From: Candidatus Saccharimonadota bacterium
Lineage (GTDB): Archaea > Nanobdellota > Nanobdellia > Pacearchaeales > GW2011-AR1
Direction of reading: 5' to 3'
Assembly (NCBI GenBank): GCA_041659445.1
Contig: JBAZYG010000001.1
Location: forward strand, 240,001-272,000
Length of the DNA stretch: 32,000 nucleotides
The translations under genes were made by a program, and so were the position numbers. Below the pieces are notes generated by a model that did not search any database, had not been told where the DNA came from, and worked only from the letters and a program-made list of their open reading frames with translations. Below, piece by piece: positions 5,147-10,019 of this stretch. Each line of letters begins with the position of its first letter. Position 1 is the first letter of the stretch.

Positions 5147-6300
5147 TTTACTAAAGGGCTTAACCTCCTTAATTTTTTTACAATTTCTTGAAGTTTTTCT
5201 AGAGTATAATCCATTTCTTTTTCTGTTGTGTATTTGCTTAAACTAATTCTTATGGACGAATTTGCTCTTAGAGGTCTTAGGTTTAATGCTTTTAATACAT
5301 GGCTTGTTTCGAGAGTATTTGACATGCAAGCAGAGCCTGTTGATACGAAAATTCCTGCATTTTCAAGATAACCTCCAATTGATTCTCCTTCTATATTATT
5401 AAAAGAAATATTTATATTATTTGCAAGCCTTAAATTTCCAGTTGGACCGTTCAAGTTTGTATCTGGAATTGAATTTAAAATTCCATTAATTAATTTATCT
5501 CTAAGTTTTTGCATATTTTTTATATTTTTTGAATTTGAAATTTCAACTGCTTTGGCAAATCCAACAATGTTTGGAATATTTTCTGTTCCACTTCTTTTTC
5601 CTTTTTCGTGTCCTCCTCCATGAAGTAAATAAGTTATATCTATTCCTTCTTTGATATATAGTGCACCAATTCCTTTTGGCCCGTGGATTTTATGGGAGTT
5701 TATTGTAACTAAATCTAAATTTTGTTTTTTGACATCTATTGGAACTTTAGTGAAACTTTGACAAGCATCAGTATGAAATAAAACTTTTTTTTCTTTACAG
5801 ATTTTTCCTATTTCTTCTATATTTTGAATTACACCAATTTCATTATTTCCATGTATCACTGAAACTAAAAATGTTTCTTTTGTTATTGTTTTTTTTAATT
5901 CGTCGATATTGATAAATCCTTGTTCATTTACATTTAGATAAGTTATTTTTGCTCCTTGATTTTCTAATCTTTCACATGGTTTTAAAATTGAATCATGCTC
6001 TATTTTTGTTGTGATCAAATGATTTTTTCCAGTGTTTTCTTTTTGATTTTTCCAGAACAAACCTTTCAATGCCCAGTTATTTGATTCTGTGCCTCCAGAT
6101 GTAAAATAAATTTCAGAAGGTTTTGCATTTATTGATTTTGCAATAATTTTTCTTGCTTTTTCCAACGCAGTTTTTGCTTCGCTTCCCATTAAATGCATTG
6201 AAGATGCATTTCCATATTTTTCATTAAAATAAGGAAGCATTTCTTTCAAAACTTTTTCATCAACTTTTGTTGTTGCTGCATTGTCGAGGTATATTTTCAT
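5143..6300 (-). CDS. nifS: Cysteine desulfurase (NifS/IscS class)
   Basis: The PLP-lysine motif SHKIHGPKGIGALY and the catalytic Cys loop STGSACMS are present. The N-terminus IYLDNAATT is typical. Confidence 0.9.
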   Translation of the reverse strand: MKIYLDNAATTKVDEKVLKEMLPYFNEKYGNASSMHLMGSEAKTALEKARKIIAKSINAKPSEIYFTSGGTESNNWALKGLFWKNQKENTGKNHLITTKIEHDSILKPCERLENQGAKITYLNVNEQGFINIDELKKTITKETFLVSVIHGNNEIGVIQNIEEIGKICKEKKVLFHTDACQSFTKVPIDVKKQNLDLVTINSHKIHGPKGIGALYIKEGIDITYLLHGGGHEKGKRSGTENIPNIVGFAKAVEISNSKNIKNMQKLRDKLINGILNSIPDTNLNGPTGNLRLANNINISFNNIEGESIGGYLENAGIFVSTGSACMSNTLETSHVLKALNLRPLRANSSIRISLSKYTTEKEMDYTLEKLQEIVKKLRRLSPLVK

Positions 6301-6758
6301 TTTAAAAGTCCTTCTTTTTGTAAAATTTCTTTATGATTATAAGCCAAATTTATTTTTTTTATTTCTGAAGGTTTAAACCATTTTATTTCAGAAGTTTCAT
6401 TAAGTGGTTTTGGTTCACCTTTTATTATTTTTGCATAATAAACTATATTAATTGAATGTAAGGAGCATTCTTTTTTTGGAGGATTTTCATAAATAATCTT
6501 AGATTTTTTTACAATTTTTATGTCAACTCCTAATTCTTCTTTAACTTCTCTTATTGCAGTTTTTTCAGATAATTCATTATAATCAATTATTCCTCCAGGT
6601 AATCCCCAAAATTCAGGATAAGTTATCATATTTTTTGTTCTTTTTCCGAGAAGAATTTCTTTTTTTGAATTTTGAATAATGACTGGAACCCCTCCAATAG
6701 CAAATTTAAATTGTAAAATATTAAATAAAGGTTTGGCTAAAAAATATTTTATGTTCAT
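6297..6758 (-). CDS. NUDIX hydrolase
   Basis: A Nudix box is present: GLPGGIIDYNELSEKTAIREVKEELGV. Confidence 0.8.
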   Translation of the reverse strand: MNIKYFLAKPLFNILQFKFAIGGVPVIIQNSKKEILLGKRTKNMITYPEFWGLPGGIIDYNELSEKTAIREVKEELGVDIKIVKKSKIIYENPPKKECSLHSINIVYYAKIIKGEPKPLNETSEIKWFKPSEIKKINLAYNHKEILQKEGLLK

Positions 6759-7079: not shown

Positions 7080-7200
7080 GAGTTTTGGTTTATGTTAAGT
7101 TCTTGTTTCATCAAAAGAGTTTTAGCAATACATCAAGTAAAAAGAATAAAGGGTTTGATGTCGTTAATAGTATCTACATAGTAGTAACATAATAGAAACA

Positions 7201-7208
7201 TTTATAAA
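7201..7208 (+). promoter_or_regulatory. TATA box TTTATAAA of island ORF 1
   Basis: Its first T is exactly 30 nt before ATG 7231, the same spacing as the two units below. TAGTAAC lies upstream at 7182-7188. Confidence 0.55.
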
Positions 7209-7230
7209 GATGCACTTTTTAATGATTGGT

Positions 7231-7647
7231 ATGGCAGATACATTAGATAAAATTGTGACATTTTTCCGAGTAAGCCCTGCACAACAAGTGATAGCTTTAG
7301 GAATGTCAACACCTGCAACAGTATTATCTACTTATAGTGCTATTGAAAATTATTCTCAAGGAAATATAGGTGCAGGGGTTACAAATACGCTTATAGCATT
7401 GGCAAATATTGGGTGTTTTTTATTTAATGAGTATTTGGCAATCGGAAAAATGCAAGAATATAGAAAAGTAAAAAGTGCATTAGATGATCATGGCTGGGAT
7501 GAAAGAATTATTGAGCCAAAATCTCATTCATGGTGTCAAAGAAATATGGCTCAAGTAGCATCAGAAGATTCTGGTTTTGGGAACGAAGCAAGAGAATATT
7601 TGAAAGACAAAGGATATAAACGGTATAATTTCATCCCATACCTTTAG
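7231..7647 (+). CDS. Orphan protein, island ORF 1 (hydrophobic N-terminal half, polar C-terminal half)
   Basis: The ORF is open from 7210, but TTTATAAA at 7201-7208 leaves no room for ATG 7210 or 7222. ATG 7231 gives the same 30-nt TATA-to-ATG spacing as the other two units. There are two hydrophobic segments (VIALGMSTPATVLSTYSAI and GVTNTLIALANIGCFLF). I recognise no family. Confidence 0.5.
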   Translation: MADTLDKIVTFFRVSPAQQVIALGMSTPATVLSTYSAIENYSQGNIGAGVTNTLIALANIGCFLFNEYLAIGKMQEYRKVKSALDDHGWDERIIEPKSHSWCQRNMAQVASEDSGFGNEAREYLKDKGYKRYNFIPYL

Positions 7648-7762
7648 ACCTCAAACTCCTTCTAAATTTAGCTAATTTTTTATTGAAACTAATCACTGTT
7701 AAACGAGGGTGAACCGAAGGGAAATTTCAGAGTTTTTGAGTTGTTTATAGTTTAAGAATTGT
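7648..7762 (+). repeat. Post-ORF conserved element, copy 1 (core 7660-7714)
   Basis: Core sequence: ttctaaatttagctaattttttattgaaactaatcactgttaaacgagggtgaac. It contains overlapping palindromes CTAAATTTAG and TTAGCTAA, a T6 run (7676-7681, terminator-like), then CTGTTAAACGAG-N-GTGAAC. The core matches copy 2 at 49 of 55 positions by hand alignment, and weaker similarity continues to about 7762. Confidence 0.8.
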
Positions 7763-7767
7763 TCAAA

Positions 7768-8259
7768 TTAATGAGTTAAAAAATATTTCAATATTCTACC
7801 AACGGGTTTAATGTTTGTTGATGGGATTAGTTCATTACATCTAATTGTTGATTCATCTCTTCGTTCAAAAGTTAAATTAGATAATTTATTTCTATCAATA
7901 TAAACAACAGTTGGTTTTGAATTTGTTCTTATGCTTTTTGAACGTGCCCATGATTCAGCATTATCAAAATCTACTACAAGATAAATTGGTCCTAAAAAAC
8001 TTTTAGAAGGATCTAGACCTTCTTGAAGAATTTGAGATAATTTATCAGTAGTAGTTCCATGAAAAAGATATCTTGGTTGATATGTTTCATCAAATAAACA
8101 TTTACTCAAATTAGATTTCATATCATAAACTTTATTAAAAAATGAGATTTTTCTTAATGTTTTTTTTACAGTAGACTCAATATTTTTATTAGTTGCAATA
8201 CCAGATGTATATAATAAATAATTTTTTAAATCATTTTCTAAATATTTTTTAACTTCCAT
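7768..8259 (-). CDS. Putative minimal ADP-ribosyltransferase-fold protein (H-Y-E class, DT/ExoA/PARP/Tpt1-like)
   Basis: YLFHGTTTDKLSQILQEGL ... GPIYLVVDFDNAESWA ... RRDESTIRCNELIPS lines up, from memory, with HGT-x6-SI-x2-G, G-[FI]-Y-[IL]-x2-D and a C-terminal catalytic-Glu strand of DT/ExoA/PARP-type ARTs. The CDS itself is well supported (163 aa, TTTAAATA about 27 nt upstream); the function call is tentative. Confidence 0.4.
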   Translation of the reverse strand: MEVKKYLENDLKNYLLYTSGIATNKNIESTVKKTLRKISFFNKVYDMKSNLSKCLFDETYQPRYLFHGTTTDKLSQILQEGLDPSKSFLGPIYLVVDFDNAESWARSKSIRTNSKPTVVYIDRNKLSNLTFERRDESTIRCNELIPSTNIKPVGRILKYFLTH

Positions 8260-8332
8260 ACCCTAAGTATAATTTATTAATATTTAAATTTTTTGTTTTA
8301 TAGTAACTATATAATGGTAAATGATATAAAGA

Positions 8333-8340
8333 TTTATAAA
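8333..8340 (+). promoter_or_regulatory. TATA box TTTATAAA of island ORF 2
   Basis: Its first T is exactly 30 nt before ATG 8363. TAGTAAC lies at 8301-8307. Confidence 0.55.
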
Positions 8341-8362
8341 GAAGTTATTATCACCATATAAT

Positions 8363-8695
8363 ATGTTCGACGTACAAGATTATTATAAAACTGCAAGAGA
8401 AAATGAAGAAGTATTTAGAAATGTATTAAGAGACTTGCGCGCTAGAAAAGTTATGTATGTGCCGAGAAATTTAGAAACCGAAGCAAATCTTGATGAAATT
8501 TTCCAAAGATATTCAGAAGGGCAAAGAATGGGAAAATTTACAATAACTTCCTTTTCAAGACCCGAAAGGACAAGAGCAACAATTGGTTTTTGCGATGTGG
8601 CTCCTCTTTCTGGAGGTGGAGCAGAGCTTGAATATTTAGTAAATGATGATAACTCAGTTAAGTATGACAAACCAGGTTTTACTATGATGAGTTAA
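8363..8695 (+). CDS. Orphan protein, island ORF 2
   Basis: The ORF is 110 aa with TATA at -30, and the conserved 3' element starts 13 nt after its stop. I recognise no family. It looks richer in G+C than the surrounding genes. Confidence 0.55.
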   Translation: MFDVQDYYKTARENEEVFRNVLRDLRARKVMYVPRNLETEANLDEIFQRYSEGQRMGKFTITSFSRPERTRATIGFCDVAPLSGGGAELEYLVNDDNSVKYDKPGFTMMS

Positions 8696-8812
8696 AACCC
8701 AAAGCCATTTCTAAATTTAGCTAATTTTTTATTGAATTTAAGTGCTGTTAAACGAGAGTGAACTAATTTCGAGGCAGGTGGTCGTTTATTGTTGTATTTG
8801 TTATAATTGTAT
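8696..8812 (+). repeat. Post-ORF conserved element, copy 2 (core 8709-8763)
   Basis: Core sequence: ttctaaatttagctaattttttattgaatttaagtgctgttaaacgagagtgaac, with T6 at 8725-8730. The downstream part (aatttcgag ... gtcgtttattgtt ... aattgt) aligns with copy 1 (aatttcagag ... gttgtttatagtt ... aattgt). Confidence 0.8.
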
Positions 8813-8833
8813 TAATTATATAGTAACGAAAGA

Positions 8834-8841
8834 TTTATAAA
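8834..8841 (+). promoter_or_regulatory. TATA box TTTATAAA of island ORF 3
   Basis: Its first T is exactly 30 nt before ATG 8864. TAGTAAC lies at 8821-8827. Confidence 0.55.
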
Positions 8842-8863
8842 GTTTAATTTTATTTCACAAGGT

Positions 8864-9178
8864 ATGATAAGAGATAATTTTCCATTAGAAAGAATATTGA
8901 ATGTTTCAGCAACAGAATATTGTTTAAACGCTGGTAAGGAATTAAAAGATTATGATCTTATAGGAGTCCATGTTGATGATGATTTGCCCTGTGGTGCAAG
9001 ATTAATTAGCAGATTTCAAGAAAGAGTTCCATCCAATGCGGAAGTAGTTGTTTCTTTTTCTTATGCTATTGCTGGAGGTGCAAGTGGAACATCTGGAGTT
9101 TTAGGATTATCTCAGACACATAGAGCTTTCTTAAATCAATATGCATCTGGGACTGCTTTGATACCAAGGGAAAAATAA
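8864..9178 (+). CDS. Orphan protein, island ORF 3
   Basis: The ORF is 104 aa with TATA at -30, and a diverged copy of the 3' element starts 10 nt after its stop. It has a Gly/Ser-rich segment (AIAGGASGTSGVLG). I recognise no family. Confidence 0.55.
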   Translation: MIRDNFPLERILNVSATEYCLNAGKELKDYDLIGVHVDDDLPCGARLISRFQERVPSNAEVVVSFSYAIAGGASGTSGVLGLSQTHRAFLNQYASGTALIPREK

Positions 9179-9243
9179 ATCTTTCGATTTCTATTCTTTA
9201 GCACTGATTTCTGAATTGAAACTATCAGACTTTTAACGAACTC
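9179..9243 (+). repeat. Post-ORF conserved element, copy 3 (diverged; core 9189-9243)
   Basis: The sequence ttctattctttagcactgatttctgaattgaaactatcagacttttaacgaactc aligns with copies 1 and 2 with indels. Shared blocks are TTCTA, TTTAGC, ATTGAAACTA and TTAACGA. Confidence 0.55.
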
Positions 9244-9251
9244 ATTTAAAT

Positions 9252-10019
9252 TTATCTTCCCTTCCAATAAGGGCATTGATCTCGATATTCGCACCAATCG
9301 CACAATGCAGAAGGTTCTGGTGGGAATTCTTTTGTTTTTTCAATTTTTTCTATTAATTCAATAGTTTGTTTTCTTAAATTTTCTAATTGCTCATTGGTTC
9401 TTTTTGATTCAATTCTTTTGTTGTGGTCCAAATAATGCCAGATTAAAATTATTTCTTTGTCATATCCATATGTTTGTTTGATTGCTAAACTATACAAAGC
9501 TAATTGCCTGTCATTTTCAAATTTATTTGGGTTTGGTAAACTTGAAGCAGTTTTATAATCATGAACTTCATAACGATTTTTTTCTTTATTAAAAACTAAT
9601 CTATCGATAAATCCCTTTATCTTGTGTGGTGAAGTTTCATCTAAAATAATATATACTTCTTTTTCAACGTCGATTGTTCCATCTTGAAATGGAGAATTTT
9701 TTAAATAATAATCAACGAGAAATTTTATTCCCTTGCTGAAGTAATCTTCTGGTTTTGCATCTTTTCTTACTACTTTAAAATTTTCTTTGTAATCTTCTTG
9801 CCATTTGTTTGTATAAAATTCAATTATTCTATCTAGCTCTGGTATAAAATCATTTAATACATTCGAATAAAGCCATTCTAGTGTATCATGAACGCATGTT
9901 CCTAAATGAGCTTCTATTGATTTTTCAAAATCTGGTGTTAATTTGTCTATATACTTGAATTTATATTTTAATTTGCATTGTTCAAAAGTAGATAATCTCG
10001 AATGTGAATAAACTGTCAT
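9252..10019 (-). CDS. PD-(D/E)XK nuclease, Cas4/RecB/AddB-like, with a 4-Cys Fe-S cluster motif
   Basis: There is an N-terminal Cys (STFEQCKLKYKFKYI) plus a C-terminal C-x2-C-x5-C (LCDWCEYRDQCPYW). Nuclease motifs seen are GFIDRL, HDYKT (D-x-K) and QLALYSL (QxxxY). No CRISPR array or other cas genes are in the window. Confidence 0.8.
   Translation of the reverse strand: MTVYSHSRLSTFEQCKLKYKFKYIDKLTPDFEKSIEAHLGTCVHDTLEWLYSNVLNDFIPELDRIIEFYTNKWQEDYKENFKVVRKDAKPEDYFSKGIKFLVDYYLKNSPFQDGTIDVEKEVYIILDETSPHKIKGFIDRLVFNKEKNRYEVHDYKTASSLPNPNKFENDRQLALYSLAIKQTYGYDKEIILIWHYLDHNKRIESKRTNEQLENLRKQTIELIEKIEKTKEFPPEPSALCDWCEYRDQCPYWKGR

Follow-up and report, generated by a model that had tools for sequence, protein, structure and literature searches.

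The RNA 2'-phosphotransferase Tpt1 (KptA) has a two-lobe architecture, made up of a lobe for RNA and an NAD+ lobe with the ADP-ribosyltransferase (ART) fold. The NAD+ contacts of the enzyme from Pyrococcus horikoshii (PhoTpt1) and the Arg-His-Arg-Arg tetrad have been defined; the HGT motif contacts the adenosine ribose and the nicotinamide amide, and the E108-G109 segment binds adenine (PMC10622864). Tpt1, whose H-H-V triad has also been defined, and the H-Y-I/L PARPs carry out transfer without a catalytic glutamate (PMC10415124). The subject of this report is a 163-residue protein encoded on the minus strand at 7768..8259 of a 32,000-nucleotide stretch of DNA (the window) from a metagenome-assembled genome (MAG) of Candidatus Pacearchaeota, a DPANN archaeon with a GC content of 26.5%. 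The original prediction, made from the letters of the window, described this open reading frame (ORF) as a minimal H-Y-E enzyme of the diphtheria toxin, exotoxin A and PARP type and as a possible toxin or defence effector. The analysis described here indicates that the protein very probably has the ART fold and is homologous to the NAD+ lobe of Tpt1/KptA.

In scans with the Pfam library, the protein gave sub-threshold matches to PTS_2-RNA (PF01885, Tpt1/KptA; E 3.6e-4, 21.1 bits, gathering score 26 bits), PARP (E 3e-3) and DUF3990 (E 0.045). NCBIfam NF002013, RNA 2'-phosphotransferase (Tpt1), was matched with an E value of 4.5e-5 and 23 bits, below the cut-off of 231 bits, and the PHROG family 'RNA 2'-phosphotransferase' with an E value of 8e-4. 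PTS_2-RNA was the best Pfam match, at E <= 0.01, of 10 of the 11 core members of the family, and one relative (P0006) passed its gathering score (30.2 vs 26 bits). When the family profile was compared with the PDB, the Tpt1 structure 7kw8 was matched with an E value of 3e-6, followed by other Tpt1 entries, PARP15 (E 0.03) and DarT1. Moreover, hhalign against four genuine Tpt1 sequences gave a probability of 96% and an E value of 4e-9 over query residues 46-127.

The structure predicted by AlphaFold2 from an alignment of 18 sequences had a predicted local distance difference test score (pLDDT) of 86.5, exceeding 90 for residues 41-163, and a predicted template modelling score (pTM) of 0.76. The order of the elements in this model was β1(64-70)-α-β2(92-95)-α-β3(116-122)-β4-β5(138-141)-β6-α, so numbered from the start of the ART-fold core at residue 47 to the end of the protein at residue 163 (7771..8121, minus strand); it is this core that is homologous to the Tpt1/KptA NAD+ lobe. 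The N-terminal extension, residues 1-46 (8122..8259, minus strand), was modelled as helices at low confidence (pLDDT 55-67). A Foldseek search of the PDB returned Tpt1/KptA structures as all of the top 19 matches, with E values from 5e-6 to 4e-4 and a root-mean-square deviation (rmsd) of about 2 Å over 89-105 columns, and the split-sheet NAD core superposed. The subsequent matches were DarT1, PltA and PARP10/15, and neither diphtheria toxin nor exotoxin A was found among the top 50. In the viral library (BFVD), small stand-alone phage ART proteins were matched with E values of 3e-6 to 1e-5. The ART fold proposed in the original prediction is considered confirmed because Foldseek and the profile searches return ART-fold structures. 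The description as a small, stand-alone ART was likewise borne out, as was the lack of a signal peptide: the protein has no N-terminal hydrophobic stretch, is hydrophilic (grand average of hydropathicity, GRAVY, -0.53) and is basic (isoelectric point, pI, 9.4).

The active site was mapped by reading the query-Tpt1 alignments against the NAD+ contacts and the H-H-V triad of PhoTpt1. The three blocks on which the original prediction was based are present (YLFHGTTTDKLSQILQEGL, residues 64-82; GPIYLVVDFDNAESWA, residues 90-105; RRDESTIRCNELIPS, residues 133-147), and the first two, the His and Tyr blocks, align with the first and second positions of the ART triad, a resemblance that is more than chance. 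H67-G68-T69 in strand β1 (8053..8061, minus strand) corresponds to H95-G96-T97 of PhoTpt1, with G68 and T69 invariant in the family, and E80-G81-L82-D83-P84 (8008..8022, minus strand) corresponds to the adenine-binding E108-G109-I-K-P112, with G81 and L82 invariant and P84 nearly so. The second triad position is occupied by Y93 in strand β2 (7981..7983, minus strand), the counterpart of PhoTpt1 H119; the His at this position in Tpt1 touches the nicotinamide ribose, and the Tyr found here, as in diphtheria toxin and the PARPs, is conserved throughout the 163-residue subgroup. The signature of the NAD+ pocket is thus read as largely intact in this subgroup.

The third triad position is located in the loop and strand β5 formed by D135-E136-S137-T138-I139-R140-C141 (7837..7857, minus strand). 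The original prediction placed the catalytic Glu of an H-Y-E enzyme at E136, but this residue is variable: the close orthologue P0005 has Gly there, and the wider relatives have Asn (twice), Met, Ser, His and Thr. In three independent alignments with Tpt1, the canonical third position falls on I139 (MAFFT), T138 (ungapped, anchored on the conserved [IV]-Pro) or S137 (extended hhalign) and never on E136, which lies one to three residues before it. Of the residues that mark the H-Y-E clade, the protein therefore has the His and the Tyr but not the Glu at the start of strand β5. Since position 139 is hydrophobic in all members and E136 is not conserved, the triad is, as far as alignment can tell, best read as H-Y-hydrophobic. 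Arg or Lys occupies position 140 in 10 of the 11 members, and D135 is kept in the same number; these two are counted among the conserved residues specific to the family, along with Y64, F66, Y120, D122 and C141.

The Arg-His-Arg-Arg tetrad of Tpt1 was not retained. The Arg-His pair has no aligned counterpart in the query, the third residue (the Arg of IRAxQGHS) is matched by K48, a position at which relatives have Asn, Thr or Leu, and the fourth, R115 of PhoTpt1, is replaced by L89. The full-length N-terminal extension is confined to the 163-residue Pacearchaeota subgroup, and the alignment of the family profile to 7kw8 begins at Tpt1 residue 52. The earlier statement that a Tpt1-type N-terminal domain is lacking was essentially right, with the reservation that a faint resemblance to the final portion of Tpt1's RNA lobe (KRFxF...IRAxQGHS) is seen over residues ~26-56 in the extended hhalign alignment. 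The protein is not classified as a Tpt1 because the RNA lobe and the tetrad are missing. A split Tpt1, with the RNA lobe encoded by a neighbouring gene, was also considered and rejected: no ORF of the island matched PTS_2-RNA at E <= 1, and the tetrad Arg of the NAD+ lobe is lost in the query as well.

The ORF is taken to be a real gene that encodes a conserved protein. Its product, with an ATG start and 163 residues plus stop codon, is identical to NCBI MFA5953279.1 (WC812_01675), annotated as a 'hypothetical protein' of a Candidatus Pacearchaeota archaeon MAG on a 486-kb contig. Among 5.8 billion proteins, searched by word index, there were four orthologues, each exactly 163 residues long, 61-63% identical and free of indels, one of which carries a Pacearchaeota annotation. 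The ratio of nonsynonymous to synonymous substitution rates (dN/dS) was 0.22-0.44 (Nei-Gojobori, three available coding sequences), and the DNA similarity to one orthologue extends 40 nt upstream of the ATG, into the promoter region. In addition, a TATA-like box, TTTAAATA, is located at 8281..8288 on the minus strand and starts 29 nt upstream of the ATG; the background of the TATA-like pattern in the window is 0.0017 per nt per strand. It is because of the orthologues of equal length, the dN/dS values, the conservation of the promoter region and the TATA-like box that the gene is accepted as real. Judged by general archaeal promoter architecture, the spacing of the box at -29 suggests a leaderless, monocistronic transcript.

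The family is small. An exhaustive search of 1.84 billion cluster representatives with a hidden Markov model (HMM) found only 16 proteins at E <= 1e-3, of which about a dozen, 119-163 residues in length, make up the core family; the remaining matches were ART domains embedded in polyvalent proteins of the phage type, together with a PARP and further small stand-alone proteins. The short relatives (119-121 residues) consist of the ART core alone, without the N-terminal region. Relatives were searched for on phages, plasmids and IMG/VR contigs and none was found, no model captured the protein in scans with the Pfam, NCBIfam, PHROG and PADLOC libraries, and a literature search on ARTs in DPANN archaea returned no relevant paper. 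The family is a rare, DPANN-restricted, unclassified stand-alone branch of the ART superfamily. A divergent subgroup from a lineage of ~48% GC (locus L011, 2215-2652; locus L016, 4866-5324) reads YLFYGTT at the HGT motif, with Tyr where the query has His, carries Cys at the position of Tyr93, and may be a functionally shifted or inactive branch, to judge from these substitutions. A distant relative from the representative library (P0013, 470 residues) has two tandem mini-ART domains with a helix-turn-helix (HTH) domain between them, and matched PARP (E 1e-7), PTS_2-RNA (E 5e-5) and HTH_17.

A conserved partner was not detected. The ORFs within 5 kb of the family gene were compared at eight loci, which represent seven distinct genomic contexts with GC contents from 26% to 48%, and all-against-all BLASTP across these loci revealed no neighbour common to distinct contexts except the ART gene itself. 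Only L011 and L016 have neighbours in common; both carry the same gene arrangement, in which the family gene is stably located between NrdR and aCPSF1. The neighbours of the relatives were ordinary or unknown (RNase T-like, AP endonuclease, NrdR, aCPSF1, TYW3, FtsZ, LemA), Pfam scans found no macro, ARH or NADAR domains among them, and the products of the two genes that flank the ART gene in the window, ORF1 and ORF2, showed no similarity to the neighbours of the orthologues.

The two flanking genes also differ from the ART gene in composition. As originally described, the ART gene converges on ORF1 (7210-7647, plus strand) across one copy of a repeat (7643-7714) and diverges from ORF2 (8363-8695, plus strand), which is followed by the second copy (8692-8763); a further orphan ORF, ORF3, is located at 8864-9178 on the plus strand. 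The GC content of the ART gene is 0.24 (0.067 at third codon positions, GC3), while that of ORF1, ORF2 and ORF3 is 0.34-0.35, which exceeds the value for the other genes of the window (0.267 +/- 0.03, 36 ORFs) by more than two standard deviations. The ART gene is inside the array by position yet is not part of it, because its GC content is native and that of its flanks is foreign, and it would appear that foreign mini-cassettes landed on both sides of a resident gene.

These observations suggest a cytoplasmic, stand-alone ART-fold protein that would be derived from, or sister to, the Tpt1/KptA NAD+ lobe. The protein would bind NAD+, expel nicotinamide and move one ADP-ribose to an acceptor. 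A conserved catalytic Glu is lacking, as in the H-H-V triad of Tpt1 and the H-Y-I/L mono-ART PARPs, so an anionic group on the acceptor would be expected to assist the reaction in place of the enzymic Glu. The most likely acceptor would be a phosphate on a nucleic acid or a nucleotide, which is favoured because of the Tpt1 ancestry, the pI of 9.4 and the presence of K108, R134 and R/K140, conserved basic residues beside D135; a protein carboxylate, or water (NAD+ glycohydrolase activity), are alternative candidates. The gene would be a long-resident chromosomal gene of a few DPANN lineages, with its own promoter, separate from the foreign cassettes that surround it and not one half of a toxin-antitoxin pair. 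The chance that all the parts of this account hold together, that is, a stand-alone Tpt1-lobe-like ART that carries out NAD+-dependent ADP-ribosyl transfer, is long resident and has no toxin-antitoxin partner, is judged to be about even. A more specific proposal can be put forward only tentatively, namely that the Tpt1 NAD+ lobe gave rise to a DPANN-specific enzyme, the present protein, with its own active site and a new kind of acceptor. In the same tentative proposal, the active site would be composed of the H-Y-hydrophobic triad with Y120, D122, D135, R/K140 and C141, and, with equal reserve, examples of the acceptor might be the end of a nucleic acid, a nucleotide metabolite or a protein of the episymbiont's host.

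Several observations weigh against the Tpt1-lobe assignment and the enzymatic function attributed to the protein. AlphaFold2 run with five sequences, the orthologues alone, gave a pLDDT of only 38.8, and the 18-sequence alignment that yielded the good model includes the four genuine Tpt1 sequences, so that the model may lean towards Tpt1. The sequence-level alignment to Tpt1 is confident for residues 46-127 only, and the register of strand β5, which contains the third triad position, differs by one to two residues between alignment methods. Three of 12 relatives (P0009, P0010, P0021) have Tyr instead of H67, and the Tyr at position 93 is kept in 7 of 11 members but gives way to Phe or Cys in the other four, which are distant ones; from these substitutions, the NAD+ chemistry may not be uniform in the wider family. 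The pyrophosphate-binding residues of Tpt1 are not conserved either, since, in addition to the replacement of R115 by L89, R133/H134 correspond to R111/T112. Finally, the use of NAD+, predicted from the sequence and the model, is probable, while the acceptor is a matter of pure inference.

Four other explanations of the locus were weighed. If the transfer chemistry had been lost and the ART pocket kept, the protein would be a non-catalytic binder of NAD+ or ADP-ribose, a sensor or a pseudo-enzyme, and the missing catalytic Glu and the variation of H67, Y93 and the pyrophosphate-binding Arg positions in the family are in keeping with this idea, as is the proposal that stand-alone NAD-binding domains serve as phage sensors (PMC9503650). 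However, Tpt1 and the H-Y-I/L PARPs catalyze transfer without a Glu (PMC10415124), and the strict or almost strict conservation of G68, T69, G81, Y120, D122, D135 and R/K140 suggests an active site; a mere binder is considered unlikely. It is very doubtful that the protein is a diverged but genuine Tpt1/KptA with a shrunken RNA lobe, which would remove 2'-phosphates or cap 5'-phosphates on RNA or DNA, or act on NADP(H). Every best match is to Tpt1, the alignment to RslTpt1 starts within the RNA lobe with K48 opposite the third tetrad Arg of IRAxQGHS, and functions beyond tRNA splicing are known for Tpt1 enzymes of archaea (PMC10622864). Nevertheless, the scores fall far under the curated cut-offs (21 vs 26 bits in Pfam, 23 vs 231 bits in NCBIfam), the first ~50 residues of Tpt1, which bear the Arg-His pair, have no counterpart, and the short family members lack the whole N-terminal region. 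The tetrad position represented by K48 is moreover not preserved in relatives, the fourth tetrad Arg has become Leu89, and the second His of H-H-V is a Tyr.

The toxin or defence effector of the original prediction, an ART that would poison the cell or an invader through an essential target and be neutralized by the product of a neighbouring orphan gene, fared poorly and is decidedly unlikely. ART domains are common in conflict systems (PMC9503650), the phage proteins structurally closest to this one are small stand-alone ARTs, and the gene is found in a repeat-bounded 2.1-kb stretch of orphan ORFs, at least one of which was recently transferred. However, no neighbour recurs beside the relatives in the seven contexts, no gene for ADP-ribose removal, such as a macrodomain, ARH or NADAR gene, lies next to the ART gene, and the would-be antidote genes are on the opposite strand with their own promoters and have a foreign GC content where that of the ART gene is native. 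The stable position between NrdR and aCPSF1 in another lineage is also at odds with this role, as is the purifying selection, which differs from the fast evolution typical of conflict genes. The PADLOC scan yielded a single weak match to UzuA (E 1e-3, 16.6 bits, 39 residues), a point in favour of a conflict function, but in only 1 of the 11 members; identity with UzuA was rejected, as the match was not reproduced across the family, and no PADLOC family matches more than one member. There is almost no likelihood that the protein is an enzyme of the diphtheria toxin/exotoxin A class acting on the diphthamide of archaeal EF2. The His and Tyr blocks resemble those of diphtheria toxin, and a distant multi-domain relative (P0011) has a weak Diphtheria_C match (E 0.008), but the query itself matches neither Diphtheria_C nor Exotox-A at E <= 1, no such structure appears in the PDB profile search or among the top 50 structural matches, and the catalytic Glu is not conserved. 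The nearest relatives are instead Tpt1/KptA, and the proposed target, diphthamide on EF2, has lost its basis with the class.

The Tpt1-lobe-like gene appears to be surrounded by elements with a different history. The direct repeat that bounds them is 72 nt long, with copies at 7643-7714 and 8692-8763 that are 81% identical, and a possible degenerate third copy is present near 9180-9250. The two copies start precisely at the stop codons of ORF1 and ORF2, respectively, and the repeat contains a T6 run and a GTTAAAC string. In locus L017, the ORF1 homologue is followed by a related 3' element; the repeat may be a shared terminator or a cassette boundary. Exact-pattern scans for it in genome and metagenome collections found nothing, and Rfam and tRNA scans of the window gave no match. 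An integron-like (attC) repeat was considered and rejected: the folding of either strand is no better than that of shuffled sequence (z +0.8 to +1.7), there are only two good copies, and no integrase was found among the scanned ORFs of the window, up to 23.9 kb. An upstream motif, ATAGTAAC...GATTTATAAAG, is common to the three plus-strand orphan ORFs (7164-7210, 8297-8342 and 8815-8851), and the start codons of ORF1 (from M8), ORF2 and ORF3 each have TTTATAAA beginning exactly 30 nt upstream; NCBI places the start of the ORF1 protein at M8 (138 residues), consistent with the position of the TATA box. Because the upstream motif and the 3' repeat are shared, each plus-strand orphan ORF looks like a self-contained promoter-ORF-terminator cassette.

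The segment 7131-7686 (557 bp), which comprises ORF1 with its promoter and 44 nt from the beginning of the repeat, is 93% identical at the DNA level to contigs of ~36% GC from other samples (loci L017-L022), and the 90% identity cluster that contains ORF1 comprises nine members, seen on over 50 contigs. Two of these loci, L017 and L020, also carry genes for a tyrosine recombinase and a Cdc6/Orc1-type ATPase, located ~0.8-2 kb beyond the segment; L018 diverges ~100 nt past the next gene and the pair is missing there. The segment has the look of a single-gene module acquired by recent transfer. In a collection of 15 billion proteins, ORF2 and ORF3 are both singletons.

The rest of the scanned window encodes housekeeping functions (IscS, NifU, NUDIX, ArsR, aIF2-gamma, S6e, aIF5B, ABC transporters). 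NUDIX enzymes can degrade ADP-ribose, and a NUDIX hydrolase gene is located at 6297-6758 on the minus strand, ~1 kb from the ART gene; it is not adjacent to family members at other loci and its proximity is probably coincidental. A stand-alone Cas4-like PD-(D/E)XK nuclease gene (9252-10019, minus strand; Pfam PDDEXK_1, E 2e-36; PADLOC Cas4, E 7e-15) adjoins the orphan stretch. No cas1 or cas2 was found among the scanned ORFs, and no search aimed at CRISPR arrays was made.

The present result is a domain assignment for a hypothetical protein rather than a new system, and diversity of the ART fold is to be expected. Nonetheless, it suggests that the Tpt1 NAD+ lobe can persist alone after loss of the RNA lobe and the catalytic tetrad, and adds to the ART superfamily a rare archaeal branch with a Tyr of the diphtheria toxin/PARP kind at the second triad position. 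Should the protein prove to be active, the acceptor that it uses would reveal the capabilities of a Tpt1-type pocket that lacks the RNA-binding half, and could point to an NAD+-dependent modification in the DPANN archaea, whose biology is poorly known.

Compared with known systems, the protein resembles the small ARTs in size and simplicity. DUF3990 (PF13151) and ART-PolyVal (PF18760) are likewise small and single-domain and gave weak profile matches, in the case of ART-PolyVal to relatives, while the proteins of the Pseudomonas phage PaBG (S5WKF0, 121 residues) and the Bacillus phage PBS1 (A0A223LCG8, 152 residues) are similar in size and were strong structural matches in BFVD. However, these are bacterial or phage-borne and often occur in conflict or injected-effector contexts, whereas the query family is chromosomal in DPANN archaea. 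We know of no characterized acceptor for DUF3990, ART-PolyVal or the small phage ART families. DarT (DUF4433) is the single-stranded DNA thymidine ADP-ribosyltransferase of the DarTG toxin-antitoxin system. It shares the ART fold, DarT1 (8baq) being the first non-Tpt1 structural match (E 2e-2), and a DarT-like phage protein was matched in BFVD, but the query has no adjacent DarG-like macrodomain, no DUF4433 Pfam match and no conserved catalytic Glu.

The mono-ART PARPs with an H-Y-I/L triad, PARP10 and PARP15, have in common with the query the His-Tyr-hydrophobic triad and were lower-ranked structural matches. They differ in that the core of the query is ~117 residues long rather than ~190 and superposes on them with an rmsd of 8-9 Å, and the donor and acceptor loop elaborations of the PARPs were not detected in the query. 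The NAD+ lobe of Tpt1/KptA (PF01885) is the best match in sequence, profile and structure, and shares with the query the β-α-β ART core, the HGT motif, the EG[LI]xP adenine segment, the hydrophobic third triad residue and the C-terminal [IV]-P. In contrast to Tpt1, only 46 residues precede the ART core and cover just the end of the RNA lobe, so that the two-lobe architecture is lost; the tetrad, the second His of the triad and the pyrophosphate Arg/His are replaced or missing, and scores remain under the curated cut-offs. The query also has conserved residues of its own, Y64, Y120, D122, D135, R/K140 and C141.

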